This document shows, one piece after another, positions 1 to 49,488 of a stretch of DNA of 64,000 nucleotides. The position numbers were made by a program, and so were the translations under genes. The stretch spans positions 449,848-513,847 of the forward strand of contig QPGO01000024.1 of NCBI GenBank assembly GCA_008632985.1, in the 5' to 3' direction. The DNA comes from Psammoneis japonica (lineage: Eukaryota). A model generated the notes under the pieces. That model did no database searches. It saw only the letters and a list, made by a program, of their open reading frames with translations, and was not told the DNA's origin. Positions within the stretch are counted from its first letter, which is position 1. Every line of letters starts with the position of its first letter.

Positions 1-240
1 ACGCTGGCGGCCGCCGAGGAGCAGGTGAAGGCGGGGACCCATGCCGCCGTGAGCAGCGTGGTCATCTCGTGGCCTCAGAAGGCGGGGACAGCCATTGCGT
101 CATGAATGCAGCACGACCGCTGATTTCCCTGCAATTGCACACAATGCTGGGAACAGTGGCTTCATTGGACAAGAAGCACAAGAAAATCAATGACAAGCAG
201 CAAACAGCATGACGATGCAAAGAGCCACACTTGCACTTTG

Positions 241-267
241 GCAGCAGCAGCAGCAGCAGCAGCAGCA
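241..267 (+). repeat. (GCA)9 microsatellite
   Basis: Seen directly. Confidence 0.9.
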
Positions 268-959
268 ACAATGACAATGGCGAAGTGATTTGAGTGTTGT
301 TGTGGTTGTTGTGTGCAAGCAGTGAGCTTTGTTTTGAAACGACAAGTCGGTCTGCGATCATTGGATTTCCAACAAACTTTTTGGACATCACGCATTTAAA
401 GAAACTGAGTCATTTAAAAATGTGCAGCATGTAAAATCTCTCATGACCATGTGCTCAGAAAGACAAACAAACAGACAGACTGCCAATGCGGAAACCGCCA
501 GATGGGCATTTGTGCCGGGTGCTGGCAAAGACAGATGGACGGGCCACCAGGCCTCTTTGCATGTTGTGCCGCACCCAAGTTTAGACAGATGGAGATGACC
601 CACCAGTGGCACAACCACTCTGGACTTGATTCATTTGGAGAAGGGTGCCTCTCAGCCAAGTTGACCTGGTTGACATTTTTGACTGTGACCTGTCAAACTT
701 TGGTGCTCTTGCTTTCTCACTTTTCCAGCTTTTTGTTTGAACGGAACATTGATGGCTGTGGCTGGATCAGCACACTCCAGCTTGGAAAAGCCTGTTCTTT
801 TTTGCTCTTCTCTCTTCCCCATCATGTCAGACTTTTTTCTTCTGGTGTTGACAATGGTGCCTTCATCAATTTGGCTTGTCAGCTTGAATCTGATGTGTGA
901 TTTTGCCGCTGTTGTTGAGTTTCTCTCTCCTCCTCAGGCCCACCCTCCATGGGTGGAGC

Positions 960-1300
960 TTCAGTGGGGTCATGAGAGCTTAAATCCAGAATTTTCAAGC
1001 TTGAGTGTTGGTTTGAGACAGAGAGGAAATCATTTGCTGTCCTGGAGACATTGAAAGAAATTTGGTGTTGTTCCTTGGTCAATGTGTGCACTTGTTGTGT
1101 GTGTGTTGATTGCAAATGCATTTCATCATGTGGGGCATTTGATGCCCAAATGTGCCATGCATTTGCAGTTGATGTGCAATGAGTGCAGCCCCAAGTCACA
1201 GCACATCAAGGGGCATCATCACCCAGTTGCAGATGCCCTCAGCCATCTGGCAATGCAACCCAGCAGCAGTGGAGATGCTGGCTCTGCGCCCTTCACATGA
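960..1300 (+). mobile_element. Degenerate Ty3/Gypsy pol, RNase H region
   Basis: Translations ETERKSFAVLETLKE (cf. TEKELLSIVETLKEF) and HIKGHHHPVADALSHL (cf. YIKG..N.VADALSRL). Confidence 0.8.
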
Positions 1301-1859
1301 AGCACTCACTTTGCAGATGACCACAGTGCTGCCAGCAAGCTTTGTGCAAATGAAAAAAAGAACAAATCAGAGTTTTTGGCACTGCCACTCCATTGCCAGC
1401 TGGGCCATTGCTGGCCAACCCACACTCCCAGCATGCTGCTTCAGTGTGGCAGGAGCTTGCACAGGATCAGCCAGACTGGGTGCCACCAGAAGGTGACACC
1501 CCACCAAAATGACTGAAAAGGATTGACTTGCACAAGGAGTTCATTGTGTGCTCATTGGTGACAGCCACAGAGGGCACACCACCACAACTGCAAAAGGAGA
1601 ATGGCACTCATGCAGGTTTTCAAAAGAAGCAACAAGACACTTTGGAACATGCTGCCAAAACAAGTGCAAACTTGGATTGCAAGGCCGCTCATTCTTGACT
1701 GAGAAGAATTGTGACAATTGCAAGAAGCTTGGCCCTCAAAGCAGTGCAGAGCTGAGACAGCTGGCAAGCAGAGGAAAGACAGTGCAGGACTTGGATGCAT
1801 TGAGCCAGGAGCCTTGAAGGCAAGGCAGGCAGGTCATCAGGAAAAAGCACTCATTTCAT

Positions 1860-2310
1860 GTTGAAACAACACCACATCTTGTGCAGAAATGCCAGTGGCT
1901 CAGCAAATGGACAACAATCAAAGGTGTGGAAGGATGACTCTCATTTGTGCTCACAAGGGCAGCAACAGAGGCAGTGTTTTCCAACCCCAAAGAGTGAAGA
2001 ACTTGATTGAAGAGCAAAGAAAAGAGGTGGCATTGAAGACTGACTGGAGCGGGTGGAAGCAGTCATCCAGAGTTGTGACAAGCAGATCATCAGCAGCTTC
2101 ACACAGAAACACAGCCAGATCTTGTGCAGAAATGCCAACAGGCACAGCAAATGGATGACAATCATCAAAGGACACTGAAGGATGACTCATGCTCATGCCA
2201 GAAAGTGCCACAAGCAACAGAGGCAGTGCATTTACCCCAGAGAGTGAGGGGAAAAGAAGCAGTGTTGAAGACCAGCTGGCATGGACAGAAGCAGTCCAGA
2301 GATGCAATGA
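1860..2310 (+). repeat. Two diverged ~245-bp tandem units inside a ~1.3-kb insert splitting the Gypsy pol
   Basis: Shared blocks atcttgtgcagaaatgcca, cagcaaatgga, gaaggatgactc, agcaacagaggcagtg, ttgaagac at about 1875 and about 2119. Confidence 0.75.
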
Positions 2311-2739
2311 TGTGCAGATTGTCAACAATTTCTGCTGAACTGTGTGGAACTTGTGCTGAAACCTGTGCAGAAAATTTCTGAGATGACAGAAAATTGAAAG
2401 CAACAAATGTTGCTTGCAATGCTGCAATGAGGTTGAGGCTGCCATTGGCAAATGTGAACAAAATGGGCTTGTTGGAGCCAACATCACACTGTCTGAGAAG
2501 GGCAACATCAGCACAAGAAGTTGTGCAGAAAACAATGTAGAGACAGGGGTGTGCAGCTGACATTAAAAAGTGTGATTGCAAAAAGAACAGCTGCCTGTTT
2601 GCTGAAATGCACTGCACTCCAGTGTGCACTTCACCTGTGTGCTTTGTGGGGGAGGCACACAATGACAGCTGGCATGCCACGAGGACAAAATTGTTGCACT
2701 GGAGGTGTTGACAAAACCTCCAGCTGTGCAGTGCCTGAA

Positions 2740-3600
2740 CAGCCGCACTGCCCTGGCAAGACATGTGCAGAAGCAAACACCCCGCTGCCCATCACTTTCA
2801 CTGGCCTGGCATCATGAGGGCTGGAGTGCATTCTGCATGTGTGAAGTGAAAACAATGCCAGGAAATGAAATGCCAAACACAGCCAGCATTGCAAGAAGCT
2901 GCCAGAAAAAGCAGCCAAGACAATCCTTTTGGATGTGACAGGGGTTTCACCAAATTGAGCAATGTGGAAAAAACACTCTGCAAAGGTGAGCAGCAACTGT
3001 GATTGCCTTGCCAGCAGGGTGGTTCAAGTGCCAAGATTTTAGAAGTGTGCACCAAACATGCGGGTGTCACAGAGATGCAGCAAATGTCATGGAGCAAACC
3101 TGGCCATGCAGGCATCCAAATCCACAGGTGAGCACTTCTGTGAAATGCACACACCAGACACTTGGAGATGTGGTGTGCTCATTTTCAGTGCAAGACATGG
3201 AGTTGGACAAGGGCAGCCCATGGAAGGGCATCTTTTCAGCCACAGCTTTTGCCATGCATCCTGCATCACATGCCACTGCATGTGCAAGTCCCAAACAATT
3301 GGTCTTTGATGCAACGCAGCTCTTTTGTTCACCACCCTTTGTGTCAAGTGCCAAGTGGAAGCACACCTGATGCAGAAAGCCAAGCTGATGCACCCAAATG
3401 ACAAATGCAAAAGCACGAAACAAAAGGAGTGCCAACACACCACAGGGCAGTTGGTGCTTGCTGTCAAACAAGGACAAAAGACAAAACACACCAGAACTGG
3501 CTGTCGCACAGGTTCTGCCAGCATTGTCAGCATGAGCAAAACAGCACCACTTTGCATGCACAAGATGGTGTGCTGACACAGATGCACTGCCATGCCACAT
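2740..3600 (+). mobile_element. Degenerate Ty3/Gypsy integrase
   Basis: PGKTCAEA..HFHWPG (zinc-binding region), WPCRHPNP (cf. WLCRYPRP), HQTLGDVV...PWKGIFSATAFAM...SPKQLVF (cf. HQTLGNMLR...PWSGILSA.AFA.R...TPGQLVFG). Confidence 0.8.
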
Positions 3601-3619
3601 CACATTTTTCTTGATGCAA

Positions 3620-4110
3620 CAATTCAGATGAGCATTGCTGATTGATGCACTGCTGGAATGGCCCATTTTGTGCTCAAACTGCAGGGGTGGTCAGCTGCTC
3701 CAAGTTTGCATGAGAGGCCAATGGACAAACATGATGATGTTGTGGTGGCAGCATCATCAGCACTTTTCCACTGCCATGCGACAGCACAATGTTGTTTTTG
3801 ACACAACAACACAGATGAGCACCAACAGCTGGTGCATTAGAATGGTGACCCATTTTGCTCAAACTGCAGGAGCTTGTCATTTTGTTCAAACTTGTGTGAG
3901 GCCAACACCACTTTCATGATGATGTTGCAAGAATTTTGCTGCAGCCTTGTTGCAGTGTGTTTTTCTTTACAACACAGATGAGCACTGATGGCCAGCACAA
4001 CAGAACAACCAAATTTGCTCAAACTGCAGGAGTCACCAGCTCATTCAAATTGAAATGAGAGGCCAGTGGTGCCAAAATGATGACAACATGGTGGCGGCAT
4101 GTCAGCAATT
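3620..4110. repeat. Three diverged ~165-185-bp tandem units
   Basis: Anchors cagatgagca and gctcaaactgcagg and gaggcca recur in units starting near 3626, 3811 and 3975. Confidence 0.75.
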
Positions 4111-7100
4111 TCCCACAGTGCATTTGTCAATTTAGTGTCTTGCAAGTGGCAGTGATCAATTGGCGATCAATTGGCCATTGTTGCAGCGGCAAAAACAAAA
4201 ACCTCTTCCGTTTGCCATTTGCACTTCCTGTGCATGAAAAAGTGGCCAATTTGTCTTTGTGGTTGATTTTCCGTGCAACTGGCCAGAGCAGCAGCTGGCT
4301 GGAGAGCAGCTCCACTCCAGCCAGCCAGCTGGTCATCTGCACAAGCAACAAGCAGCGTGATGTCATGTGCAACATTCCTGGCCACGGCGATCCTGGCTGT
4401 GAAACATCACATTTGGGCAAAAAATGGCATGCCAGCAATTGATTTGTGGCCCCGGACTGCAACGAACTCATTTCTCATGTGTGTGTGCATGAGCCTTCAA
4501 ATGCTTCTTCGGATCACTTTTCCCTTGTGTCAACCATGTGCCCTCATGCCCTGCGGTGTTCAACGCTTTGCTGTCAATGGCAAAACAATCAGGGGTCATT
4601 GGAAAAACAGTGGTGGCATTTGGGATTGGAGCATCACATGACATCATGTTTTTGCAAAATGTGATCTGCTCTCTGCAGCAGAGAGGAGAGAGAGTCTGAG
4701 TCTGCCGCACACCAACGTGTGTGATTTACAACATTTTGCCACTTGTGGCAGTGTCCATGAAATGGAGGACTGATCAATGCCACAACAAACATTGTGAGCA
4801 TCAAAGAAAGTTGCATCATTTTTTGAAAACAAAAGGATGCTTCTTGAGTGAGGAGGAGGAGTTGCAACCCTTTTGAAGGGTCATGGTGACTGAAATGAAT
4901 GGGATGGGACCACCTGACCTGATGCCATTGGATCTCAGGTCATGGTTTGTGGGCTCATGGCAGTTTGCACTGTAGAGATAGAAATGGCAAAGCAGACAAC
5001 TCAGGAGGTGTGAATTGACCAGTTGCCAAATTGTGAGAACAAAAACCACTCCACTCAACAACCAACAACAACTTGTGGGAAACAACAAGTGAACCGCACT
5101 CACACCAAACTCAACACAGATGCACTTGGTGCAAAGGCCTGTCAAGAACGAGAAGTTCTTGATTGCATGAAAGAAGAACAGAAGTGAGGCTCATTCTCAA
5201 TTTGAACCCCAGACCTCCGATCTCATTCGTTTCTTGATCTGTGATTGGGTGAGTCGTTGATGGTGGTTGATGGTGGTTTCTGAGCGGTCATCATCACACG
5301 CAGCACATGTCACGTTGGAAAGGGGCCTTTGCAAGCAAGGGCAGGTTGTCAAATGGTGTGCTTGGCGCATTTGCACATGACGATGTTGCTGACACAGCCG
5401 GTCATCCCCTGAGTGAGCAGCGCTGTGCACGCTGTGGTTTGTGGCACACAGCACATGAACACTTGCTGACAATGCAAGGTCATTTTTCCCTTGTGTGCGC
5501 AACAAATCTCCCTTGTGTTGCACGCTGCAACATCAACTTGGCTGATGTGGAAGGTCATCCTTTGAGTGATTGCACCTTGTGTGTGGCACAAATTTGATGC
5601 CATGCACAGCACATGACATGAAGGGAAAGCAACTTTTAGAGTCATCACACATTGCCCCTTTGTCACTTTAATCTAGCTGGTCAAACACAGCTTTAAATTG
5701 CCATGATGCAGCACGCAGAGAGAGGACAGATCTTGGCACAAATTTCACCAGTCTAACACAAGCAACAAGGAGAGTGAACTCAGAAAATGCAAAGGCATTC
5801 TGAGCAGAAAGAAGCATCATTGTCAGCTGTTGCATGTTTGCCATCTCTCTTTGGTCTTTTTTTCTTTGCAGTGTGTGGCAGCTGCCCCCCTCTTCCTCTC
5901 TCAGAACAAGCTTGTCTCATCCACTTCCTTCCTGTCACTGTGTGCCACACAAACTGGTCAAAGCATTTTGCTTTTTAACTTTTCCACAAAGTGTCCTGAG
6001 TTGGTGCTGATGCAAGAGGAGGCCAAGCTCTTGCAGCTTGGAGCTGACCAGCAGCGTGTGCCTTCTGTGCTGCATGCTTGATGTCTCTTGCAAGCAGCGG
6101 CGGCTGTGCGAAACAATGTGTGCATGAGCTGCCACCTGCCCAAGGCTGCAAAAAATGGTTTGCTTCTCTCTGCATGGCTTTTTGACTTTTCTCATGCCCT
6201 CCTCACAAAAGCAAGCCTTTGTTTGCTCTTCCTGCTTCTGCTGCTGCCCAGAACCTTGCGCCAGTGCATGCTGGGGGTCATTTCTGTCTACCTCAGATGC
6301 TGTGTGCCTGTGAACACTTCCACTTTTTTCATTTTTTGTTGCTGTTGTTGCTCTGGCTCCTTGCTGCTCCAACATGCAGCACTGCTTTCTGCTGCTGACA
6401 CTGCTCCTTTTTGATGGTCTTGGCAGAGCACCTCTCTGCGAAGGAGCATCATGTTGGGAGCTCTGCACCAAAGCTGAAAGACAATTTTCCAGCTCTAAAG
6501 AGAGCTCATGCCAGAGGACATGCTTTTTTGTTCTTGTTTGACACAAGCAGCACGCGGCAGCACCAGCACAAAGCAAAGACATTTTCAGGGCAAGCTCCGA
6601 TGATGCTTTTTGGGCAAGCTTGGAGATTTTGCAACAAGCGCCAATGCAAAGTGCTGAATGCACTCTTTGTGGGGTGATGCTTGGTTGTTGACAACATGCA
6701 GGGATTTTTTGCTGGCCACCAGCTGGGGTCAACAACGAGCTCTTGCTCTGCTGGGTTGTGCTGCAGAGCATCTCAACTGCTTGCTTTTGGTGCCAAAAAA
6801 GTCTCGCCACTCTCCATTTGGCACCTTGTTGGTCCCTTCCACCTGCTTGTTCAAGCTGCAGCACACAGGCACAGCTGTCTGTGAGAGCTGGCACCAGCAC
6901 CCTGGCCCTCCTCCTGTGGCTTCTTTTTCATCCTCATCATTGGTGCCTCTTGCAGCCATCAGCACTGTGTGGATGGACACACTGCTTCTACACCAAATTC
7001 TTGTGCCTGTGCATCACACTTTGCTTCATAAATTTTTCCTTTTCCTTGAGTGCTGCAGCTGCCTTTGGTGACGGTGCTTGTGAAAAATCATCATTTGTTC

Positions 7101-7295
7101 ACCCCAGGTGAAAGTCCGGGTTACTTTTGCCTGCTGACTCTCGCTTCGCTCGAGTTGAGTTAAAAAATCAAAACCCTCTGCCCACACCAGGTAAAAAAAA
7201 AGCCTTTGCAAATCCACTGCCGAGGGAGGATTAGGAATGGCGCTACGAGAGCCAATCAGAATTCAGCATTTGGGATTTCTACTTAGGGGAGACCC

Positions 7296-7318
7296 TCGGA
7301 AAGTCGAGGACTTTCCGA
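7296..7318. other. Perfect 10-bp inverted repeat upstream of the transposase
   Basis: tcggaaagtc-gag-gactttccga; a CCAAT element (gagccaatcag) lies at about 7250. Confidence 0.7.
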
Positions 7319-7482
7319 CTAATTAATTGGCACTTTTTTGGAAAATCTGACGCAATCACTTAGGGACGAGGAGGTTGAGACAACTCTCCAAAAGCAGACA
7401 CAAGAATCAGAATGATGCGGAGACCGACTGTCATCTTCCTTTCGCGCCACGGAAAATCACAACAACACAGACTTCTCACGCG

Positions 7483-10400
7483 ATGAGAAAAATTCTCTCA
7501 CAAAAAAAACCCACGAGAGAGAAAAGTACAATCTCTACTGGTGCTTCGATGATGACGGACGTAACGGAAGAATCTGCTCCAACAAAAGAGGCCGAAGAGC
7601 GGCAGCTGCATCCTTTCTTTAGAAACATGGGCATTCAATCCCAGAAACGCAAAGGCTCCATCAAAACGAGCAAAAGCCAAGCGCACACACGCCAGAAGCG
7701 GACGCATCAGAGCGATTTTAGTGGGCGTAAGGTAGCAAGAGTAGACGACGGAACGAAGAAATGCAAGAGATGTGAGAGAGGTCCTACACATCATCATGGC
7801 CATGATCCCACATGTAAATTTTCAAAAAGGCACTCGCAAGTGAACGTCACCAAAGCTACCATGGATGCAGAGCGACGCGATAAAGAGCTGCACGAAACGA
7901 ACAACACGATTCCGGCTGCCCCAGTTGAGGGAGTTTCGACCATACGAGACCATTTTGGAACACAGAGACCTGAAGCTCGCATCATGTTGCCTCCTCCAGG
8001 TGTTTCCAATGTTTGCAAGCCGGTGAATTCGGGGGTGGCTGGTGCTGCAGGCCCCGTGGAGTACACGGATAATACTTGCAAGGCGGCCGCTATTACAAAA
8101 TTTTTGGTTGAGACTTTGAAACAAGAGATTCGAGCAAGAGTAAAAAAATACGAGAACTCCGAGGAGAGGACGAAGTGCCCGGCTGCAGTAAGTGCTCTCA
8201 TCAGCTATCTGTTGGACTCTATCAAGCCCAGATTCGAGCAAGGCAGCAACAAGTATCCTGTGGCTACAGCAAAAAGTATTAAGCTCAACGAGATGCTGGA
8301 GCTTAAGGATGAAACTTTTCCTCCTGGTACAATGTCATTTGAAGTTCCCAAGGATGACTGCACATTGCCACCTGATTGTTACTACCATCAGCTGCAAGGT
8401 ATGATAATACACATTGTTTGTTGGGAGCTGAATTATCCTAACATCTACATCCCCTGCATTGACGGAGAGTGCGACGGTGAAATGATTCATGACCGTATGG
8501 ACTTTACTCGATACGGTGGGGCGACACCAATATATTGCATCAGCGGGAAGACGCACATGGCGGTGTCAATGTGGTACGAATGCAATCAATGCAAAATTCG
8601 ATGCAAGGGCAACGACGGTCGACTACTGCACAAGCTGCCAAAAAGCCTACAGTCAGCATATCCAACGTTGCCTAAGTATGCTAGTGCAACCAACAAGTGG
8701 CATCTTACCAAGGAAACTACAAGACTCCTTGAGTCCATTATTGTCACGTACGCAGGCGGGGACAAGTTCTCGCACATGCTGCACCAAATGCGAGCCGACT
8801 ATTTCAAGGACCTCCAGAAAGAATACTATGACCGAGCCATAGACAAAACCGAAGACTGGGTGTCTTTTGAGGATTGGATGGGCGGGTACAGTCCATCAGG
8901 CTCTGCACTTCTCGATCTTTATGACGAAAGCGGCAAATCAAAATTGACAGCTCTGGCCACGTCCTCGTATGACAGGTGCACGAGATTAATACAGATGGTT
9001 GGAGCCGCCGTGAGTGTCGCATCCGATCACACTTTTCAGATTCTCAAAAACTACTCAAAGAAAGCAGGTGGAGCAGCTGGCCTGTTCACCATGTGCAATG
9101 AAAAGGGGCAGGTAGGAACCGCTTGCCTAACCCCAACATTGGAAGCAAAAGATTTTGCTCACGCGGCAGAACAGTTTGCCAGGCGAAAAAACGTACGACC
9201 GAAAATCCACTACAGCGACACCTGGCCGCATAAGTCGCAGCTATGGAAGACAATTTTCGGAATGAACCTAATCTGTCTGCTCGGGCTCTTTCATTGGATG
9301 CATCGAATTGTAAGAACGCTCCGAAAAGAGCATGCTGATTATTGGCAAGCTGTAAGTGATCTTAAGGCGACCGTATCGTATGCCGAGTGGTCCGACCGCC
9401 AAGCTGTGATACAAGCCCTGAAGGATGGCACTCTAAACAACAAAAAGCATTCTGACGAGGAGATACAAGATGTCATCCACTCTTCAAGGTGGAAGCACTA
9501 CCAGGAATACATTCGTCTCTGGAGGCACCCGCTGGAGAAAAGGCTCACTTTGCTTGAGGATTGGTTTGCTCGATACAAGTGCACTGCCTCCGACGGAGCC
9601 CCCGCTGCCGGAGGACGGCTAGATCCAGACAGTGGACTAACACTGTTTACAACCGACACAAAGGATGCAATTTTGAATGCGAAAGAAACCTCTAAGGGAT
9701 TGGACACTCCAGTGCCGAAGTCGGAGCAGTGCTGGCCAGTAGCGCCGTCCCTGCGGTCGAAAGCAAAACCAGTAAAGTGGCGAACGCTGCTAGGACCAGA
9801 ATCCAAATTGGAGAAGGCACACGATTCACTGGCACATTATGGAAATTGCGGAATGAGACATTCATTGATGGACTTGCTTACGTTGGAAGGATTAGTTTTG
9901 TACAATGAAACAATCGAAGAGAAGGAGCGAATCGAGAAAATGGATGCAACGGCGCGAGCCAAGATTCCATACGACTTTCGGGGCGTGGTTACTCATCGGA
10001 ATGTACTTGATCTAATTGAAATCAATAACCTTGCAATAAAAAAGGGGAAGAAAGCGCCATATCCGAATGTAAGGGAACTCGAGGAGGACACCGGCGAGCG
10101 TTTCTTGTCCCAGTGCCTGCTGGAGCAGAATGCAAGAAATGAAACGATTGCTCCACACCCCGAGACAGATCGATGCATGTGCAATCTCTGTGGGACGAAA
10201 CCGGTGCAAAATCCATACAAGCGAACAACAAGATCAGAAGTTGGAAACCGTGACGATGGGGAAACTGCAGCGGCGCCAACCGTTGAACCTACAAGCGGCA
10301 TTGTCGAAATTGCGATGGCTCCCGAGGTGACGGTTGAACCCATGTGCATGGATGCCACTCCATTGCTTAATGCAGCTCACGTTCAAGTCGAGGAGCAGTT

Positions 10401-10680
10401 CAACATGTTGCAAGCCATGAGAAGCACCCTCTCGCAACAGCTTGCTTTTGCATCGAGCATGAGTGCAGCCCTCCCATCTGTTCCATGTCAAGTGCAACCG
10501 GCTCTTTCAACTCTTAATGATCCAATACGAGATCAAAGGAAGCGAGACATTGATCCGTACTGTTGTCCTGCTTTCCTACAATACAAGCTGCAGCAAAGCT
10601 ACAGCGTGACGGGGTGCCGACCAAGAGGTCGACCAGCGCATTCTAAGGATTGCCCAAAGAGACAGCAGTCAAGAAGGTAG
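7483..10680 (+). mobile_element. Intact Dada-like DDE transposase ORF (1065 aa from ATG 7483)
   Basis: Uninterrupted ORF with normal composition. Cys-rich N-terminal region (PC...YECNQC), then SDHTF, MCNEKGQV..LT, P.IHYSD, LGLFHWMHR, H.DY...SDL and GPESKLEKAH, in the order typical of Dada-type transposases (DHTFK / NE.GQV / YxD / DxxH / GT..LE..H). Confidence 0.7.
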
Positions 10681-12877
10681 ATGTTATCATTGCTAGGCAC
10701 ATTTTATGCATGAGTTTTTGATTCACTATTTTATTTCAACGCTGCCGATTCCTACACTCCAACAGTATCAACAACCTTTGTTTTTAGCCGGGTTCGCAAG
10801 AGTTGCAGTAGTCGCAACAACAGCAGTAGTCACAAGAGTTGCAGCAGTGGTCGTAAGAGCTGAAGCAGCCGTCGTTCTTGCGTGCCCTATGGAACACGCT
10901 GTTAATGACTGAAGTCAGAAACAATGCCACAGAGATGAGCTCTAGGACAAAAGTAACGTTTGCAATGCAACAGAACCACGACCAGCTGCTCCAACACCGT
11001 AGACTCCCATGCTCCTGCACAACTGATCCAGTGCCACCTGCTCCCTGTGCCACCCAGCTGCAAAACTTTAACAATCCAAACCACCTTTGAGGGCAGGTGA
11101 ACCCTATCGCAACGGAGATTCGGGTCTGCGGCGATTGAAGGCACTCCCGTCCTTGGAAGTACCAGTCAACGCCTTACCGGGGAGCAACCCCTTGGCTCTC
11201 GTCAGCCGTCTCAATGTTCAGAGGTGGGGCCACATGAATATTATTGCAGAAAAAAATTACCGAGGCGCTGCTGCAGTCAGCAACCTCGGCAGTGGCCCGT
11301 GTTATTTAAAGACGAGGGCAACCTCGTCTGCCGCTTATACGCGGACTTTTCCAGCCAAAGTGGTAGATTGTAGATAAAAAAACGACACAAACCGCACCCA
11401 CAATCAATGTATGGCCATCAGTCTCTTCAAGTAGCGTGTCAATGGCACCTGAGGCAGCGCCGCAAGCAGCGATACTGCAAAAATCCTGAAACGCCACCCC
11501 GATGACTAGCAAACCCTCATTGACGACTGGAGAAGAGTCGACTGGAACCACAACGATTGCAGTGCGAAACATCAGCGTACGAGACGCCATTAATGCTCAA
11601 TACTTAAAGGAGGGCTCTTCAATCTGTCAAGAACGAACAGAAATTGCAACGCAAGAGTGAGAGACGAGTTCTAAAAATGGCAAAAGTACCAACGCATTTC
11701 TTATCCATTTTTCACGTTTTTCATACCTCTCTTTTCGTATATTCGTTTGTCAGAGAGAGCTTTAATGCGTGCTTTGTTGTCACGGCAGTATCACAAGTGA
11801 CGGCGACAATTTCAACTACCGGCTCTTGCAGCTGTCATGGTCGATTTTTTGTTTGGTGTCGGAGGGAAACTCCTGAATTGCGTAGATTTCTACGTAAAAT
11901 TCATACTAGAGATACTTCAACACTACAATGTCTCATCGGTGTCACCACGCCAAATTACTTCAACATGCGAGCACCCGGAGATCTGACACATCGGGTGGTG
12001 AAAAGGGAGAAAGAAGTGAGGATCGCTCTTCAAACCACTTCCGCAATTTAGATCAAGCTCGCTGCCCTCGCAACCCCTTCCTCTCTCCTTCCTTTCTCTC
12101 CTCTTCCTCCTTCTTTCTCCTCTCCCCTCCCCCCCTCTCGTGGAGTCACTAACCCCCCCAAAATCGGCACTGGATGGACGACTCATGGTGGCGTCGCCCA
12201 ACAATAACAGCAACAACAATTCTTGTCGTTGGGAGCCGTGGCGGAGGATGAAGACGGTGTGCTAGACGATATTCAAGCGGCATGTTGCGATGCCGACTAA
12301 CGACCTAATCGCGGATATACGTTTTGTGCATCTTGTGATTCATTTGCGTTTGATGATCCTCCCGGAATGGAAAGACTTGCTTAAACGTCGTGGTGTTCTT
12401 GTGGAAGATGATACAGTGACGGCGCCTCCTGAATACATTATCGTCCTCCAGAAGAAGTCGTAGAGCACCGCATTCAAGTAAATGAAGTGGACGGAGAGGA
12501 GTAGGAAGACGAAACTCACGAAAAAGCTAGACAACGAGAAGAAGAGATTCTTCATTAACGAAGACATGTTGCGTGCTGTTGTTTTGGAAGTGTAGGGGGA
12601 CTTGCCATCTGCCGGTGAGTATGATTGACTTGTGTGGTTCTGTTCTTTTTCTCTCAGCTGCACTGTGTTTCGTTTTATACCGTAGAGTAGTTATCAAGGC
12701 TCCCGAGAATTTTTTGTTTGTTTGCAAATTGAATCCAGTGACGGACGATGAGGACTCGGAACTGATCTTTTCACGCTTTGATCCTGAGGTCAAGGCTGAA
12801 ATTATTCGAGACACGAAACCGGCGCGTCTCTATTGCATCATGAAAACACAACATACGCATGATGCAACAATAAACAG

Positions 12878-13975
12878 CACTGGCGCATGTCACAATACCC
12901 ATGGCACTGCCAGAGGGTCAGAGGCGATTCAGATGAGGCACCGAGAGCCGCTTTTTGCTAAGTCTTCTCTCTCACGATCTCTTTAGACATTCGGTCGGTA
13001 TCTATGCTTCCTTTCGCTTCAACCTGCCCATTCCTCTATGCAGAGAAGTCGCAGCAACTTATCCTCTAAACCAGCTCGCATTCAATAAGGTCCGCCGAGA
13101 ACATTCTACTGCATCCACAATGAAGGAATCAGCCATTTGGTACCATACGTTGACAAAAGAATGAGAAATACGACTTTCATAAGTGCTCCTGCTGCGGCGC
13201 TTGGGCTTCTTGCAACTCACTTTACGCTCACTAACGAATCGTCATTCTCGTCTCACCTTGTCGAGCTACTTGGAAAACCTTTCAACGACGACAAGTCCCA
13301 TTACCTCCTCGACGATAACATCATCGTAGGCTCCCAGCTACATGGACTTTCAGTACGTGCCCGTTTTATGATAGCAGGCCGACGACTCGACTGCCAACAC
13401 GTCTCAACGCACCGGTACGCACGATGCAAGAATGAAACCTCAGTGGCGCGTGTCACGATACCCATGGCGCATGGCGCTCACAGAGGGCCAGAGGCGATTC
13501 AGATCAGGCATCAAGGAGCCGCTTTTCCCTAAGCATTCTCTCTCACGCTATCTTTGGACATCGTCGGTATCTATACTTCCTATTGCCTCAAACTGCCTAT
13601 TCCTCTACGCAGAGAAGTCGCCCCAACTTGCTTCTCCGGCATCCTCCAAACCTACTCGCATTCAACAAGGCTGAGAACATTCCACTGCATCCACACGGAA
13701 GGAATCGGTCATTTGGTACCATACGTTGACAAAAGAATGAGAATATGAGTTTCCTAACCGCTCCTGCTAAGGCGCTTGGGCTTCTTGCAACTCACTGTAC
13801 GCTCACTACCGAATCGTCACTCTCGTCTCACTTTGTCAAGCTACATGGAATCCTTTCAAAGACGACAGATCCCATTACCTCCTTGACGATAACATCATCC
13901 AAGGCTCCAAGCTACGCGGACTTTCAGTACGCGCCCTTTTTTGTTTCAGTCAGGCCGACTCGACTGCCAACATTG
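12878..13975 (+). repeat. Diverged ~565-bp tandem duplication with normal TpA content
   Basis: Colinear blocks tgtcac.atacccatggc, agaggcgattcagat, cagagaagtcgc, catttggtaccatacgttgacaaaagaatgagaa, ggcgcttgggcttcttgcaactcac, gactcgactgccaaca occur at about 12878-13400 and 13441-13975. Confidence 0.9.
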
Positions 13976-15899
13976 TAATTTTCAGCTGCAAGCGAAATGG
14001 TTTCAATCCTGTCACTTTAAACGTGCTGGACGCTTCTGGTTCATCGCTCGTATCAAAGCGAGGGACGCAGTCCAGTTGGGCTGCTTCATTTTGCCAAGGC
14101 CAAGGCGTTTTCGAGCATTGTCAACAAGTACCCGTTCGAGCCTTTCGCGTGAGTTCATATTTCATGCCTTTATTGTCTGTCCGCATTGACGCCCCTGGCT
14201 TCTCTGCTTGGTCTTGATTCTTTGGACTACTCACTACCTCATCATTCATTTCTAGTAGAGAAATATGACAAGCTGCACTAGATTAGAGCAGTCACAAGAC
14301 ACGCCTCAAGTATAAAATAGTCTACCTCCATCCCAGAGAGTGAATCATGCCGATGGGTGTCCTCAGAGGCAGCCTTCAAGTGGCTGTAAGTGACGGTTCC
14401 TTGTATCGCTGACTCGATAGGCGAAGACACACACCTAAAGAGTGCAGGCGTGTTTATCGGGGTTATCTAATGTAGGAGGGCCGGTGCACCATGGGGTGTA
14501 GTCGTTTAGTTTTGAACGACCTTCGCGAGGCTTCTAGAGATCACTTTGACTTTGGATGACTTCTACAAGTATCCCCAGTGCTGAATGACCTCACAACTTT
14601 GACTGTGCGGTTTCTGTCATCAGGATTCATCGTAGAAAACGGTTTGCTATCTATACTGACAAGCGTAGGAGTCAAGAGATGGTGCTGGAATGGCATTAGT
14701 GAGTATCGTTTGGCAAGAGTTCCGCTCTCATGCTCGCGGAGATCAATAAACTTTGGGATTGTTCAAGGCAATTGCATTCATTGTTCCGACTCAGTCAGAA
14801 ACGCGGCGATATTCGAGCGTGACAATTCTCCAGCAAAAGAAACAACAGGTATGAAAGGGAAAATCGGAAAAGTTGAGGAAGCACTATGAGAAAGACGACG
14901 AGTTTCAAGTTCAAGTTGTGCTCGAAAATCGAGCGCGAAAGAATTTCCGAGAGATTTTGTTTGTTTCGTGACCGTTGCTCTCATTGCCTTTGGCTATTGT
15001 TTGATTGACTCTCAAGATGCGGCTGCGAATGAAGCAAGGTCACTGGTATAGTTGGAGGGCTTTTTGTTGGCCACTCTTTGTCGGAAATGCGGCTAGCCAC
15101 CTCTTTACAGATGTAGTCAGAATGTTGTCGCATTGGACTGGATTGGGCAGCACCGGTGTTCAAGGTATCTGGACATGAGCAGTACCGGCCGCCGCTCTCG
15201 TAGCAACTCTATGAGTAGCCGAATAAGTGAAAGAGTTCCATCCTTCTTTGTTTGATGGAGCACCCCAACGAGCTGAATCTTTGAATCGCCCACCATCTCT
15301 TCCGAAAGCTTGTTGGCGCAGTCGACAAGAACTCAGTTGTGATGCCGGTAGCGGAAATAGCTCTGGTTTGGCGTTGAGCAACGACGACATCCATTGGAAC
15401 TAGAATCGGCGTGGACAGACATTGCGTGACTCCATTAGACTATTTTCAGTTTGGTGTATCGCGAGCGTTGACTGCTGTCTCATGACACTTTCTCTAGATT
15501 TGTTTTCTCTAACGCCTTCATTCTCGAGCAAAACCTAGAACGCTCGCGAATTTCGAACATTTCGTTTCTGTATGCTAGTGGGCTAGAGAGTATCGTAGCG
15601 ACCTAATTCATAATTGAATTGGATCGAATAATCCCCAGGCAAGCGAGCGATCAGCGTCGCAAGAGTCCAGCACATGTCAATGACAAGCCTTGGGGCATCC
15701 CGCAATGAACACCCCAGCGTGGACCCCATCTGAAAGAAAGAGGAGAGTGGTGTAGCACTGAAGCAGAAACAACGACAGCACAGCATGCAATGACATCGCA
15801 ATCGCTACGACCGTCTTCGCAGTCCATTGACGTACGTACGGAATAACTTGCACGCAAATGAGGATTGCTGTCTGGTGCTGTTAGTCTTTCTACTTCTAT

Positions 15900-17900
15900 T
15901 GTAAAGTTTCAAAGTGTGTTTCACACATTTGAAACACGCCAACATGAAAATTGAGACACAAATCGGTCGCGCAGGGTAATTTTGCCTCAAGAGCGCCATC
16001 AAAAGATGGCGCTCAAGCTTTTTCGTATCTTCAGAGTGAAATGTCACCCCAAAAAAAGAAAAAGGGGGGACGCAATGCGGAGACAACAAGAAAACTTGCA
16101 AGTCAACCGCTTGCCAAGCCATTTCACTCCCTGCGAGTGAAGGCTTGCCGTGTCACCGTGTCGCCGGCACGGCGAAACCCCGATTCAGCGTTCCATCAAT
16201 GGCATGATCTGCTCGGCAAGCTCTTGCTGCTTTGCAGACAAACACTTGCTGTCTCTTTCAACAGCCGTGGTCTTGACTGACCAAGTGAACGGGCAACTTC
16301 CTGCGCTCAAAGGCACGAGAGTGACATGGACTCAAGGCTGGAGAGACGCACTTGATTTGCCCGACCTCTGGACTTAACTGGCAACACCCAAGCTGCCATT
16401 TGAGACAACACTTCGTGCAAGCAAAACATGTTGTGGAACACCAAACAAGAGAAAGCCATCAGAACCAGAGGAAGGGCGAGCCATCCTTGGGTGTCGCTGC
16501 ATTCCGGCTTGGCGAACAACAAACACATCATGCCGCAAACGATGCGTTGTGATCGAAAGCGTGAGAGATTTTGTTTGTGTTGTGACCGTTGCTAAATGTC
16601 TCATTCACTGTCACTTTTGTGCACCACAGCAGAGACAATGCCATCACTTCACATGCAGAAATGTGTTTTGAACTTGGCACTGACAAAATCATTGCTGATT
16701 CCTACGCAGACCATGCGGTTGCCACACAAAGCGCCAAAAAAACTGCCGCCGATGATGTCTGCGCCGTTGTCGAGGTCCGTCTGAGCACCATCAGAATTTC
16801 AAATTACTTCTCTACTGTGGCATGTGACGATGATGGCGCCATGCGCACATGGCATGACGATGACATTGGATGTGTTGTCGCAAAGCTCTGGATTGCATCA
16901 TCACAGCAGGAGACCACGGGAAAACAGGGCATCCGCCCAGATGGTGCGCAATTTTGCCTTGTTTTCCATTGAACAGTGTGCAACATAGAAGAGAAGGATG
17001 CACACATTCAGCGGTCGGCTGTCGCAAAAATTTGCGCGCGCTTTTGCTTGGACGTCTGACGTGCCAGCAGTTCTTTTCACCGGATCGCCAAAATGCGTGC
17101 CGTTCGAGCAGTTTTTTTTTACCGGATGGTAAAAAAAATGGCACTTCTTTTTTACCGTGCGGCAACGGAGACGTCAAACTTTTGCTGTTGAGGCAAATCA
17201 AAACCCTCTCGGTTTCAGCATGAGAACCGATGGACGTTTTCCATGCTGACGTTTGTCTTTGAGCTTTCCACATCCTCCGCCAAGCATCCAATCATCGCAC
17301 GAAGCCCCAAGGGAAGAAAGAAGGACTCAGCATGGGCCATGGTGGTTTTTTATGGCATCAGAGAGCGATCGCTGATGCTGTGTGCGAACAGCATTTTTAC
17401 CGGACGACGCAAAGTTGAGCCGTTCAAGCTGTTTTTTTTTGCCGCACGACTCAACATCAAGCCGTTCTTGCCAATGTTGTTTGGCGAAATCGCCAACACA
17501 AACTTTTTTAGCAATTGTCATCATTGCCCAAATACAAATTCCACATGGGCCCTTTGAAATGCATTTGACAACTTCTTTTCACAAATGTCCGAAGAACAAC
17601 AGCCATTCAATTTTCCCGTGCTCTCTGGTCGACAGGATGCATTGGCGTGTTGTTTGCATCCATTGTCAACTGATGTTCCCCATGAGCCAGCCGGGGCAGG
17701 GCTAGTTGGTCGCGCACATTTGGGTTCGATGCAGCCGTGCAACTGGCCATGCCCTGCAGGAAGAGCTGTTGGTGGCGCGCGAGCAGAAGCAACAAAGCAA
17801 AGAACACGGCGTGGGTCAAAACGTTGTAAAATGACACAACAACAAGCAGCGAGAAGAAACCCAACTTGACCCATGAATGCTGCGCATACATGTTGTCCAA
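15900..17900. other. Partially eroded domain B (TpA low, CpG largely retained)
   Basis: Few TpA in 16100-17800 while CpG remains frequent; no recognisable intact ORF. Confidence 0.6.
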
Positions 17901-18499: not shown

Positions 18500-21400
18500 T
18501 GCTCTGGCGCATCCTTCTGATCCTGTGCTACTTTTACCTGTTTTTTAGTTGGCTTGCAATGTGGTTTGTGCTGATGTCTGGAGAAGGCAAATGCTCTAGC
18601 TTGTTGGGTCTCTGGTGCTTTGCCACTCAGTTGTTGTTGTCAGTTCGCGCCTTGTGATTCACATTGTCAACAGTGCAACACTGCATTTCACATGGATGCA
18701 ACTTACACGACCATGCTGCCGATTTGTGGAGTGTCGGGGTTCCCATCTACGACATGATTGTTGGACACACTAATTTCGTGATCGTTTGTCTGAACGCTTG
18801 TTGCTCTTGCATTCGCTGGTTCTTGTCGCTTGTCGCTGGCCCACAGTGCCGTGGTCACACATGCCGACAAATGACACTCCCAAGGCCTTCTCCTACGAAA
18901 GTCCAACTCTCTGTCAAGCACTGCGACTTTGTTGCCATTGGAGCGTTCTGAGTGCCGTGACATCAATGCCCTGGATTGTGGACTTGTGCAGACACATGAG
19001 TGGAGGAACTCTCCACGGAGGAAACATGCTTGGCCAAGGAGCCAGATGGGATTATGCTGCGTGGTGTCCTTGTCTGATGATTGCAACAAAAAAAGGCCTG
19101 CAAGCACTTGAAAACATGTGGCACTTTGACATCAAGAGGTCATGCATTCGTCCAGGTTTCAAGTGCTCCAGTTGTCATGCTGCATCGTTTCTCTTGGCGA
19201 TGTCCTCTGCGAAATTCAAAATGCCGGAGCTGACTGCTCCCGTCGCTGACATCCCATGCCTCTTTAAGCTGCAACTGGACTAGGGCCATGCCACATGTTG
19301 CTTCCGATGATGTCTGCCTCAGAATGGAGCTCCAGATTCCACTCCTGGCCAGGCAGATTCAAGCTCCTCACCCCTCACTCTACCCCGAGCCCAGCGCTTC
19401 TGCTCACAGGGTTCGGAGACCTGTGGTTGGATAGATGCCGTGTGGCTCCGCGGATGCATTGTTGTTGCTGCAGCTGGGGAACAATCTGTCCTTCTTGGAA
19501 AGAATGCATTTGAATTGAAAGGGCAAAGAAACAGGTTTTGTGCTGTGGCTGTGGTGGTGCAGGTGGAAGCAGCGGCAGGAACCAAGTGCTCTTTACCTTA
19601 GATTCGCGCAACTGTTTGCTGTTCTGACTTAATCGACAACATTTGCATGGTCATGACAGGAGTCAATTGAAGCCGTGAAGTTGGACGATGCTGAAATCCA
19701 TGTGTGCCACTGGCCCACACTCCTTCTCTGCCACCCTCCCACCCTCTGACACACCCTGCACTCTCCTCTTACAGCCCATTTGGTTTGCTGCATGTTGATG
19801 AGTCTGTGGCTCCCAGATCACACTGGAGAGGAGGCTGTGTTTGCACATTTTTGCAGATCTTTGCCAAAATCTTCAACTTCACATCACTTGCAGTGTTGTG
19901 CTTCATGCTTGGGGCATCATTGAAGATGTCATCTGGAATGGCATCTGAAACCTTTGAGAACCACTTGTCAGCATTGACAAAGATCCAGCATTGAGATGTC
20001 TCATTGCTCTCCTCAGCATGCTCCCTGATGAGATTCATCTCACGAACTGCTTTCAGTGGCTCTGATTGAAGTCTGTGCTTGGCACATTCTCTGTCAATCT
20101 CACCCTCAAATTGCTCACACTCATGTTTCTTCAGGATCTTGAGCTTGGAGATGTGCTCCAGCCCAGGTGAGACTTCATGTCATGGGTGCACAGAATTTTG
20201 CATGCAAGCTCAACAGCACCAGAGCCCAACTGGCAGATGTTTTGTCTTCAACATCAAACAAACAACAGAGTGTTTGTGGTGCATTTGTTGCACCTCTTGC
20301 AACTCAACGTTTTTGAAGATTCTCCTGCCCTGTGCCGTTTGCAAGACATGTGAGAATGGCGCCACAAAATGTCAAAAGTTGTTGGGTGGACAGCCCAACA
20401 AGTGCACTGCAAAATGACAAAATTGTGCCAAATCCATGCAGAAATGATGTGCGTGCATGACACACGATGGATGAAAAAACTTTTGTCACAGCTGTGGTGC
20501 ACCCAAAGGTGAAGCTCAACTTCTTGTTGCAGCCATGCATTTTGTGATCAAGAAGCTCTTGTTCTAGATGCGCGACACTTGCTTTGAGACCAAGAGGTTA
20601 GAAAAAGCAGTGTCCTGACAGTTGAGGTGAGATGTCTTTGCCATGCTTGAGCTTTTGTGCACAATTTGGCACCCTTTCCTTGCCCCAATGTGCTGCAACA
20701 TTGCTGGCCTTTGACTCTGCCTTTTTCCCCTGTGCTTTGAGATTTTGACCACAGGGATTTCCTGGTTTCTTGTTGGCATTTCAAAAACTTGGTTGGTCCA
20801 AGCTCAGCCACAGTGGTCAACAATTGAGTTTCCAGGTGAAGCATGGTGCACTCAAGCTAAGGCATCTTCTTGACACCACAAAAATGCCCACACTTGTGCC
20901 ACTTTGGCAAGCTCTTTTTGTTGTCCCCTTTGTCAGATCTTCTGAGCATCATTTGCTCTCTGCACTCCATTGCCTTCCTTGTTGTCATGACACTCTCTTG
21001 TGAAACCATTGCTTGCAATTGCGCATGCATGTGCTGCTGTCTTGCCTTTTCCAGTGGATGCCACAAGAGCACCCAGCTTTGCCAATCTCTCACTTGTTGT
21101 TGTGCTGTGTGGAGGAATGATTTCCTTTAGAAATCACTGCAAAACACTTGGGGGAGTTTGGATTTGTTGAGTCACAAACAATGAGGACCCTGCCAGCAAT
21201 CTTGTCAATGGCCTTGCTGTGGAACACTGCCAGCAGGCACAGCAAGACAGACCTCAAAAAGCTGTTGTGCTGTGGAGCTTCCTTCTGGAGAAAGAAATGA
21301 GCAGAACTTGGCAAGACAGCTTGGATGAAAGAGTGTGGGCAACTGGCTTTCTTGTCAAAAAGCATGCAACAACTTGGCCGGTTGGTTGCTTGGTGCAGAC

Positions 21401-23640
21401 AGCTTTTTTGATTTTCTGCTCTGTTGCGAAGCAATGTGCACTGCATTTCTTGACATGCGATGTCATTTTCTTGACAAACCAACCATTCATTCAATCTTTG
21501 CTTGAAGTGCAGTGTCTTGCATCACTGCAATGTGATCCTAAACACCTTGAACTTGGCCGCTGTTTTCCATGTTCCTGTTGTGTCTTTGAGGTCCTGGATC
21601 TTGAGAGAAATGGCACACAAGGCAATGTTGTGACATCAGATGCCCTGGCACACCAACCACAGAATCAGGTCCTTGGCACTATTTCATGTGTGGGTTGACC
21701 TGTTTTTGTGTGAGTCCTGCAAGGAAAATGTGTCAGCAACAATCCATTCTGACAAAGCAAGCAACAGAAAGTTGGAGGAAAGGGTGCTCTCTTTTGCTTT
21801 TGTCATTGTCACTTTCCTGACACCTTCTGCCACTGCTTTTAAAACTCAAAATGCTTCACAGGAAACAAGCAAGATAGCCAACTGTCCACCAGTGTGCAAT
21901 GAGCAGCTCTTGCATTGCCCCGAGCAAGTCACCCAGCATCTTGAGTTTAAACAGCAAGTTTCCTGGCATTTCAGTGGCTGCCACAGGCATCTTTGTCCAT
22001 GCTGCATCTGCTGGCTGCCTCCACTTCAACTTCAGTTCTTTGCAAAAATGTGCAGGCTGTGCGAAGGAGTTGAGCTGCACTTTAATTGTCTGAACCACTG
22101 CTGCCAATGTGGTTTGCACTGGAAGCTGAAAGGCAGACTAGATGCCATGAATGCTGAATGAATCGGATGTCACTGGCTTGCAAAACATGCCTGCTGTGGT
22201 CAAAGCTTTGCCAGTGGACACTCAGAAGCACTTTGCCCCCACAGTTGCATGTTTGTCCCTTGAACTTTTGATTTTAATTGCCAAGGCATCACAGGCTCTG
22301 CTTTGCACCAGTGGTGATGTCTTTGCTGTGCTCTTCGTTCTGTTGCAGGTGAGGTTGGCAGAAAATTGCATCAAAGAGCCATGTTGGAGTGTCACAATTT
22401 TGTCTGCTTTGCTCCAGATTCTGAGCATTCTCACTTCTTGCATGTTTTGTCCACTGTCAGACTGCACAAATGAACAACCGGTCTTTGACACTGTGTTTCC
22501 AAAGATGACAAGCTGTGTGATGGCAAGTTCCACCACCCAGTTGTCCAGCATGGAATGCCCTGGACTTGACTTTGCAACAACTGTGAAGTGCCCTGGGCTT
22601 GACTTTGCAATGAAGAGCTGGTTGAAGGAGAAGCATTTTCCACAGTCTTTTTGTCTACAATGCACTTCCAGTTCAAGCATGAAAGTGCACCTTGAAAGTC
22701 AAATCAGAATCTCTTGGTTGATTCTTGACATCCGCAGATGCACAACTCAATGTGAGTGTGGCAAAAAGCTGCTTGGTGCATGGTGTCAGCAAATTTTTCC
22801 TTGTTTGCAAAGCTTCTTCATTGTGCTCACCACTGCTCTTTCTTGTTTGCAGCACCCAAGGTCTCCTTTCTTGGTGCAGCAACAGCTGGAGCTTGTTTTT
22901 GCGAAGCACCCATTTGTTGGAGGAAGCACCTGTGGTGCAAGGATCGGTCTGTCACTCTTGCTGCTGGAAAGAATGCAACAACATCTGAAGGAAATGGAAG
23001 TGATGGGTGTGCAACCTTCCAACAGGCTGGTGACATGAAAATGCACCATTGAAGCTTGTTGGCAATTTTTCCTTGGGTTCTTTTGGGTCGGGTGTTGTTG
23101 TCCTTTGCTTCTTCTGACTAGAAAGAGCTGTTGTCCCATGCATGCAAACAAGTCAGGTGATCTGTTGGAACAGCAAAATTGTCTTGTTCTGAAACGCAGT
23201 AAAGTGGCACATTCCTTTTTTGCGTTGGACTGACAGCGATGTGCAGGCTGTTGAAACCCAACGTGAATCCAGGCACAAGAGTGGGCTTGTTGCTGCTGAA
23301 CATCAAATGCCTTGACATGCCAGAAATCACATTATTCACATTGTATTTGAAAGAAAATGCACCCAGACGAAGCGGACCCAATCTTTGTCAGGGAACCCAT
23401 CAGTTGTGTGTCTTGGTGTCGTTCGACGCATTGATGAAGGCCTCGAATGCTTCGAGACGCGCTGAGTTCATTTTGCCATCAATTCGTCAAAGCAGCCCAA
23501 TCAAAAGAATGATCAATGTGTTTTTGGTCTGTGTCTTTGTTCGATCGGGCTGCTGATGCTGTCTTGTCAAGAAATGCCCTGCAACGACAACTGTCATTGT
23601 CTGTGGCAAATCGATGCCGTGATGAAAGTGCGGCATGGTG
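18500..23640 (-). pseudogene. TpA-eroded domain C, probably a decayed long minus-strand gene or TE of unrecognised family
   Basis: TpA/CpG depletion strongest centrally. Protein-like minus-strand fragments (e.g. 19769-20038, 22222-22680, 23118-23381); no family motif recognised. Confidence 0.5.
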
Positions 23641-24678
23641 CGTTTTTTTTGGAAGGTCGACAGACCCCAAGTCGAACTACTCTCTACTCCACTAGCCAGA
23701 GTAGCTAGAGTGGTAGTAGCCCGCCTCTACCGGTGGCTAGAGAGAGAGAGCCACTCCCGGCTTGGGAGGTCAGAGAGAGCTACCGGCACTAGTGGACAGC
23801 CAAGGGGCCACAGAGTCGAGAGCGAGTTGTTCATAGCTAGAGACTACTCTAGAGTTGGTGCCGCAGGGAAAGTCTAAAAGATGTGTCAAAAGTTATCACC
23901 CTCTTTTCAGACCAGAAAGAACCCACCTTGCATCAAAACGAAAACCAGACAGTGCTGCTTAGCCCTGCATAGAAGCTCCGAAGCTCGCCACTCTCTCTCT
24001 CTCTAGAGCTACTATATTCTATATTGTACCTCTACTGAGTAGAGTACCCTACTATCGGTATCTACCAGAACATATGGGTAGCTAGGCCCACCCTTGACAA
24101 ACTTTGAAGCTGCAAAATGTGATGGGATCAAACCGCATGAAGAATCTGGCAACTTCTGAATCAAACCTGTCCTTCCCCCAAAATCTCGCCATTCACTCAA
24201 ATTTCTAGTTGACGTGCACACAAAGCATGGCTTGCTGTGTACTGTAGTGATGTAAGCCAGAGGAAAGCAGTGGCGCCAACACAGTCGGATACGTGTCATT
24301 GAAGCCCTATCTTCTTGATGTATTGGGAAGTTCCCGGCACTCTTGGATGAATGCAAGATGCAAGCCAACACTCTCAGACCGCGCGTTTGCGTGGCCAGTT
24401 TCTCGCAAGAAAGATTGTTTGCAGGAAAAAGCTAAAGGCAAGCCATTTCGGTTGTAACAAAAGTTCTTACATAGTGAGGTGTTATCAAGGACCAGGCAAA
24501 AGTACGGTGGCAGATTAGGCAATAAAAAAGTTCGATGGGTAGGTGTGTCAAAAAGTGATCCGTCGTGTGGGTTGCATTGTATGTACACGATCTTCATCAG
24601 CTGTTTGTTCTTCCAAATTGACACATGGGGTATATCATAGGTCTCTGTTGATATCTGTTTTACATCATGTCAGTCGCT

Positions 24679-36210: not shown

Positions 36211-36214
36211 CGCT

Positions 36215-49450: not shown

Positions 49451-49488
<38 letters not shown>

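Follow-up and report, generated by a model that had tools for sequence, protein, structure and literature searches.

TpA-restricted hypermutation of integrated viral DNA has been described in the alga Bigelowiella natans in a preprint that proposes an ADAT2-like candidate enzyme (Mettrop et al., bioRxiv 10.64898/2026.01.13.699255). Here we describe a 64,000-bp stretch of the Psammoneis japonica genome (contig QPGO01000024.1, positions 449,848 to 513,847; hereafter the window, with coordinates counted from its first letter) in which ordinary DNA alternates with blocks that have been almost emptied of TpA, and in which the bases flanking each TpA bear on whether it survives. The process is a variant of the recently described TpA hypermutation, to which we add a half-site model of the flank dependence, an effect of the second downstream base, a test on the product side, a CpG control and a test of the rival explanation that TpA sites are regained. 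As in B. natans, to the extent covered by the preprint, TpA gives way to TpG or CpA in clustered kilobase tracts and genes are spared; 33 of the 64 windows of 1 kb fall within the thresholds given there (a Rho TpA of at most 0.43 with a Rho CpA+TpG of at least 1.52, for the latter of which we averaged the CpA and TpG ratios), with as many as 16 in a row. The two cases differ in host lineage (the best named relatives of one gene in the window are all diatoms), in that CpG is also eroded here in four of the six blocks, and in that mutations were observed in B. natans whereas the present case offers only a footprint. A literature search for an account of this process, or of a flank rule, in diatoms returned only the Bigelowiella preprint, from the main text of which the words 'context', 'flanking', 'trinucleotide' and 'tetranucleotide' are absent (its Table S2 may contain such data).

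Another system that invites comparison is repeat-induced point mutation (RIP) of fungi, described for Neurospora and other ascomycetes (PMC7296669), which shares with the blocks described here, as far as that source goes, mutation that is dense, transition-only, dinucleotide-specific and confined to blocks. The direction is opposite, however, given that TpA falls here to 0.05 of expectation while CpA/TpG doubles. On the basis of the evidence presented below, we suggest that the TA-poor blocks represent DNA rewritten by a flank-sensitive mutator that turned TpA into TpG or CpA, with TAY (that is, RTA on the other strand; Y, pyrimidine; R, purine) as its preferred target, a reading to which we assign a probability of roughly two in three. 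RIP changes C to T at CpA and is recognized by an excess of TpA and a deficit of CpA/TpG, the reverse of the composition found in the window.

Flank-dependent survival of TpA

A composition scan of the window distinguished ordinary DNA (TpA at 0.5-0.8 of expectation and CpG at about 1.0) from TA-poor DNA (TpA at 0.00-0.15 and CpA/TpG at 1.6-2.15 of expectation). Segmentation with a two-state hidden Markov model, based on TA density only and thus making no use of the flanks of surviving TAs, delimited six TA-poor segments that together comprise 35,348 bp with 134 TpA, compared with about 1,180 TpA in 28,652 bp of ordinary DNA. Across the six segments, observed/expected ratios were 0.04-0.12 for TpA and 1.5-1.9 for CpA/TpG; a signature of CpG decay (CpG at 0.14-0.28), of the kind that cytosine methylation and deamination would leave, was present in four of them (the doubly eroded segments) and missing from two short ones (0.77 and 0.88; the TA-only segments).

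The surviving sites are far from a random sample of TpA. Sorted by flanks into YTAR, mixed (YTAY or RTAR) and RTAY, they number 77, 53 and 4 in the six TA-poor segments versus 229, 627 and 320 in ordinary DNA (chi-square p = 5e-24), such that the class that is rarest in ordinary DNA, YTAR, is the commonest among survivors. In the four doubly eroded segments, trimmed by 400 bp at each internal edge (29.5 kb), 71 YTAR and 33 mixed sites remain with no RTAY; the four RTAY survivors are all found at most 400 bp from the edge of a segment, one in a TA-only segment. The flank dependence had been proposed in an earlier note on the region 390..7030, which counted roughly two dozen TpA, mostly YTAR with a few mixed sites. 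This region holds 25 surviving TpA (TTAA 7, TTAG 5, TTAC 3, CTAA 2, CTAC 2, GTAG 2, and CTAG, GTAA, ATAG and ATAA 1 each), of which 15 are YTAR and none is RTAY, in agreement with the note, whose 'a few' understated the mixed sites (10 of 25). The note was also right that GTAC, ATAT, GTAT and ATAC are absent (0 each) and that their products are abundant, GCAC, GTGC, ACAT and ATGT occurring 67, 71, 36 and 39 times (2.7, 3.0, 1.3 and 1.4 times the mononucleotide expectation). As a fraction of all pyrimidine-purine steps in the region, TA accounts for 15/351 in the YTAR class, 9/862 in the mixed class and 0/443 in the RTAY class (chi-square p = 1.3e-6; one TA at the region edge is omitted from this count). 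The check that the note had put forward, in which equal depletion across all 16 NTAN contexts would have spoken against a preference, gave ratios of eroded to ordinary counts that ranged from 0.49 for TTAA down to 0.00 for ATAT, and a Markov expectation computed from dinucleotides of the eroded DNA itself puts TTAA at 2.0 times, GTAC at 0.15 and ATAT at 0. Flank-dependent survival of TpA is therefore confirmed as real and far beyond chance.

As a baseline that is insensitive to the erosion itself, pyrimidine-purine steps were classed by the purine/pyrimidine state of both flanks, which transitions cannot alter. The TA fraction of these steps falls from 0.139 in ordinary to 0.039 in eroded DNA for YxxR (survival 0.283), from 0.173 to 0.012 for mixed flanks (0.068) and from 0.197 to 0.002 for RxxY (0.010). 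Because CpG survival is flat over the same three classes (0.27, 0.30 and 0.31, respectively), which provides an internal control, base composition is not the cause of the TA flank bias. Pyrimidine-purine steps are equally dense in eroded (8556/35348 bp, 0.242 per bp) and ordinary DNA (6903/28652 bp, 0.241), which is what a purely transitional conversion of TA and CG to CA/TG would give. Chance, a composition artefact or systematic base-calling error at modified bases is in our view an extremely improbable source of the pattern: although the region of the earlier note contains only 25 sites, and the single public run that contains the stretch may be the assembly's own data, p values run from 1e-6 for that region alone to 5e-24 for the window over three different baselines, CpG lacks such a bias, 79 % of the region's sampled 31-letter words recur in contigs of the public run (one 951-letter contig differing at 3 places), and tandem copies carry CA and TG at the same site, which is not expected of a motif-specific calling error.

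The flank rule can be resolved further by treating each TA as two half-sites (that is, 5'-TA-n on either strand) and expressing survival relative to ordinary DNA. Half-site survival decreases in the order TAA (0.26), TAG (0.14), TAC (0.06) and TAT (0.03), and an A at the next position (+2) raises it to 0.50 for TAAA, 0.22 for TAGA and 0.10 for TACA, the other contexts with data lying at 0.02-0.19 and TATA at 0/84; any base other than A at +2 is equally sensitive. In nested logistic models, position +1 (p = 2.6e-26) and position +2 (p = 5.8e-10) contribute strongly and +5 marginally (p = 0.001), with no significant effect at +3 and +4. Because +2 also matters, the footprint spans about six bases rather than four, and the typical survivor reads T-Y-T-A-R-A. 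The net loss of TpA depends on both sides of the site: beside a TAAA half-site the partner is still purine-biased (55:19, compared with 58:89 in ordinary DNA; p = 1e-6). The 16 contexts are fitted by a multiplicative model in which the two half-sites act independently (deviance 15-16 on 12 degrees of freedom, goodness of fit p = 0.18-0.23) compared with a deviance of 119-155 without context (improvement p = 1e-22 to 1e-30).

From these regularities we infer a mutator that would act at the level of DNA and convert TpA to TpG or CpA at a rate dependent on its neighbours. Attack would fall on the A of 5'-T-A-n-n-3', fastest before T, then before C, then before G and slowest before A, and an A at the second downstream position would slow it further. 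If the two strands of each palindromic TA were hit independently, RTAY would be converted to completion because both its half-sites are good, mixed sites would be converted mostly on the TAY strand, and YTAR sites, above all T-Y-T-A-R-A, would lag and form the survivors. Four of the six blocks have also lost CpG, through a separate process with a different flank rule.

Products, tandem copies and competing explanations

If the A of TAY is favoured, mixed sites should yield YTGY or RCAR rather than YCAY or RTGR. The ratio of the former to the latter is 2542:1595 (1.59) in eroded versus 1214:995 (1.22) in ordinary DNA (odds ratio 1.31, p = 6e-7), and it lies at 1.36-1.82 in every one of the six TA-poor segments, the values of the two TA-only segments (1.46 and 1.77) matching the model. 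CpG loss that is independent of purine/pyrimidine flanks should not create such an asymmetry. The strand on which a site was changed thus varies with its flanks, as is also seen when tandem copies within eroded DNA are compared, among them an array of four copies of about 183 bp (36171..36927, + strand), which differ mainly by transitions, and copies of about 183 bp at 3564..4196 (+ strand), inside the region of the earlier note. In 11 pairs of adjacent copies, one copy carried CA and the other TG at 22/59 RxxY, 31/144 mixed and 11/69 YxxR steps (p = 0.023 and 0.008 by Fisher's test), and concordant mixed pairs carried the predicted product in 78 cases versus 35. Between eroded copies, 15-29 % of positions show a transition and 2-17 % a transversion; four of the five pairs of duplicates in ordinary DNA have about 1.2-1.5 transitions for each transversion, and in a control tandem duplication there (12853-13400 and 13415-13973, 86 % identity) transitions are about as frequent as transversions.

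We simulated the process on the window's ordinary DNA, eroding it in silico until about 10 % of TA sites survived, with relative rates set for A:G:C:T after the TA. Context-free erosion left YTAR, mixed and RTAY survivors at 19/54/27 % with a product ratio of 1.12, rates of 1:1.5:4:7.5 gave 58/39/3 % and 1.42, and rates of 1:1.5:15:30 gave 96/4/0 % and 1.59, compared with an observed 57/40/3 % and 1.59; the moderate rates reproduce the survivors and most of the product excess. The preferred target proposed in the earlier note, namely the A of 5'-TAY (the T of RTA on the other strand), is accordingly supported as the best model by the half-site order, the two-half-site fit, the products and the simulation.

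TA sites might also be re-created after their loss. Context-neutral re-creation was considered and rejected, since its precursors would give 20-25 % RTAY. A more specific version, in which TA is lost regardless of context and the survivors are mostly TAs re-made by C-to-T change after a pyrimidine (that is, YCA to YTA, or TGR to TAR on the other strand), we consider unlikely. Such regain likewise predicts an absence of RTAY, with YTAR and mixed classes of about the same size; passage through TA would also shift YCAY to YTGY, so that the product asymmetry does not exclude it, and the survivors of the TA-only segments (4/13/2) have a context-free look. Fitted with four parameters, as many as the survival model has, regain nevertheless fails goodness of fit (deviance 26.4, p = 0.009, for all segments and 32.4, p = 0.001, for deep interiors, versus 15-19 for the survival model) and over-predicts sites that combine an eligible flank with a TAT half-site, namely ATAA (10.0 versus 3), TTAT (9.7 versus 5) and CTAT (5.8 versus 1). 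By the arithmetic of the flank-class counts it would also require C-to-T change at about one-third of all YCAY sites, whereas in the hypermutable regions of the Bigelowiella experiment, as given in the preprint, GC-to-AT change amounts to about 0.006 of AT-to-GC change (bioRxiv 10.64898/2026.01.13.699255). Another route to the same survivors and the same products would be a context-blind mutator from which something protects the YTAR sites, TYTARA above all: a protein bound there, a modified base or the local shape of T-tract and A-tract DNA. An A-tract effect would suit the extra protection by A at +2; yet the independence of the half-sites and the strand-specific products of mixed sites require shielding of one strand at a time, which is more natural for substrate recognition, and we regard shielding as rather improbable.

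Several observations weigh against a mutator that prefers TAY. Searches of the window for intact or ancestral copies of the eroded DNA (blastn and a purine/pyrimidine-collapsed self-comparison) returned none, only tandem duplicates, and without a polarized mutation in the window loss is not fully separable from regain; the differences listed for public-run contigs at 80 % likeness (40 of about 2,120) are mostly CpG versus CpA/TpG and CA/TG doubles, and are likewise unpolarized. Most of the ordinary DNA that served as baseline is coding, and the sequences from which the eroded blocks descend may have been different. The 19 survivors of the two TA-only segments split into 4/13/2, closer to the 3/10/5 or so expected of context-free loss than to the roughly 9/9/1 of the model, albeit in a small sample in which five sites are copies of one motif (TTTTTA). 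The tandem-copy test relies on overlapping, non-independent pairs and on an aligner that tolerates transitions, and in the eroded segments CA and TG form no local strand runs (z between -1.7 and 1.8) of the kind that one-strand bursts would leave. The strengths of the preference also disagree: survivors imply a rate preference of 3-8 fold, whereas the product excess implies that nearly all hits at mixed sites fall on the TAY strand, the moderate simulation falling short of the product ratio (1.42 versus 1.59) and the strong one overshooting the survivor bias; uneven exposure among sub-regions could explain why survivors point to the weaker preference. Finally, a transposon identity of the eroded blocks is unsupported, 110 of the 111 stop-to-stop open reading frames (ORFs) of at least 110 amino acids in eroded DNA being without a retroelement match.

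The eroded segments and their surroundings

The first eroded segment (1..7121; observed/expected 0.05 for TpA, 0.20 for CpG and 1.88 for CpA/TpG) ends sharply about 230 bp before a long ORF. This ORF (7351-10680, + strand, 1109 amino acids) has no Pfam match, and its high summed contig depth in one public run suggests that it may be multi-copy. It lies in a stretch of ordinary genic DNA (7122..16026; TpA 0.56, CpG 0.93) that served as a comparator, as did a second such stretch (47754..59172) with Maf, GLUCM-like, TsaD, UPF0047 and PPR genes. All genes with Pfam matches (PPR, Maf, TsaD, GLUCM-like and UPF0047) lie within ordinary DNA, and the top-ranking named relatives of the TsaD-like ORF all come from diatoms (55-73 % identity). 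The same (CAG)n-type simple repeat occurs at 241-271 and at 49452-49482, the latter within the GLUCM-like ORF. GC content is similar in eroded (0.475-0.54) and ordinary DNA (0.43-0.50) despite the massive rewriting; TA-to-CA/TG change raises GC, and CG-to-CA/TG change lowers it.

Two further doubly eroded segments lie inside the window, at 18772..23677 (TpA 0.08, CpG 0.28; YTAR/mixed/RTAY survivors 15/11/1) and, as the largest at 15 kb, at 32748..47753 (TpA 0.05, CpG 0.14; 37/15/1), and the last (59173..64000; TpA 0.04; 6/4/0) continues past the window end. The TA-only segments occupy 16027..17826 (TpA 0.12, CpG 0.88; 4/9/1) and 25645..27331 (TpA 0.06, CpG 0.77; 0/4/1). These two blocks have lost TpA yet keep CpG, so the erasure of TA can be separated, in place or in time, from the decay of CpG. 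The surviving CpG of the four CpG-eroded segments follow a rule of their own, with survival relative to ordinary DNA of 0.31/0.30 for CGC/CGG and 0.17/0.19 for CGA/CGT and no purine/pyrimidine effect. Within the first TA-only segment, five copies of TTTTYRCCG spread over 370 bp (17074-17444) carry TA in three cases, CA in one and TG in one, and show, in miniature, erasure caught part-way at a TTAC site. Between this segment and the next TA-poor one lies an island of 945 bp with ordinary composition (17827-18771; TpA 0.73, GC 0.43), whose summed contig depth (3299-5282) is the highest of the compared stretch and which may be a multi-copy insertion of recent date; it showed no terminal repeats, a search for inverted and direct repeats around the island giving nothing decisive.

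The only protein-family match of any kind among the 111 ORFs of the eroded DNA is a faint one to reverse transcriptase (RVT_1; 61951-62808, + strand, within the last segment), with E = 0.0013, below the Pfam curated cut-off. This match would suit a scenario in which double-stranded RNA underwent ADAR-like A-to-I hyper-editing and was returned to DNA by retrotransposition. To our knowledge, ADARs are confined to animals. Their 5' U preference, together with the A-to-G change itself, resembles the pattern described here; ADARs differ, however, in acting on RNA and in favouring UAG in the account consulted (PMC10661471), whereas TAG is among the more resistant contexts in the window (survival 0.14, compared with 0.06 for TAC and 0.03 for TAT). 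Both strands are equally converted (TG fraction 0.42-0.57), and the blocks are contiguous over up to 15 kb and contain tandem arrays; save for this one match, their ORFs show no retroelement likeness. We therefore consider RNA hyper-editing very improbable.

Candidate enzymes and implications

The earlier note raised TadA-type deaminases as one hypothesis for the enzyme. In tRNA, the base immediately 5' of A34 is U33. Deamination of A34 in the anticodon is carried out by TadA and ADAT2-ADAT3, and the bacterial TadA target is the ACG anticodon (that is, U-A-C), according to the source cited above for ADARs (PMC10661471); on DNA, the editor TadA-8e A48E is reported to act in a YAC context (PMC13109818). 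The TpA-specific loss in the window shares with these enzymes a T immediately 5' of the target A. On the 3' side the likeness to the U-A-C target and to the engineered YAC-restricted editor would be partial at most: TAC is sensitive (0.06), but a following T is more sensitive (0.03) than C. Fungal mRNA editing, later assigned to Tad2/Tad3 (PMC10962958, PMC11087585), is described as having U at -1 in 85.7 % of sites and as favouring UAG and UAA (PMC4817773), the opposite 3' preference to that found here, where TAG and TAA are resistant. The flank rule thus appears to fit a TadA-type enzyme only in part. The agent, which we presume to be an enzyme that reads sequence, could be an adenine deaminase acting on TAY or a thymine-directed activity on RTA, two equivalent readings that would leave an identical footprint.

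A TpA-directed mutator is so far known from one preprint on an unrelated alga, in which the enzyme is unproven. The quantitative rule obtained here (sensitivity TAT > TAC > TAG > TAA, protection by A at +2 and independent half-sites) provides a fingerprint against which candidate enzymes can be compared in vitro; it speaks against a 3' preference like that of ADARs or of fungal Tad2/Tad3, yields a direct prediction for the 231 mutations in the supplement of the Bigelowiella preprint, and sets the CpG decay in the same blocks apart as a separate process. It is possible, and we propose it only tentatively, that diatoms possess a natural base-editing enzyme that acts on silenced, non-genic chromatin and recognizes some six bases (5'-T-A-Y with a base other than A at +2), turning A into G, or T into C, in one strand per event, in which case the measured footprint would be its substrate specificity. 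Were this so, the footprint could serve to pick the enzyme from among candidate deaminases and thymine-modifying enzymes, and would provide a test of whether the machinery is shared with Bigelowiella.

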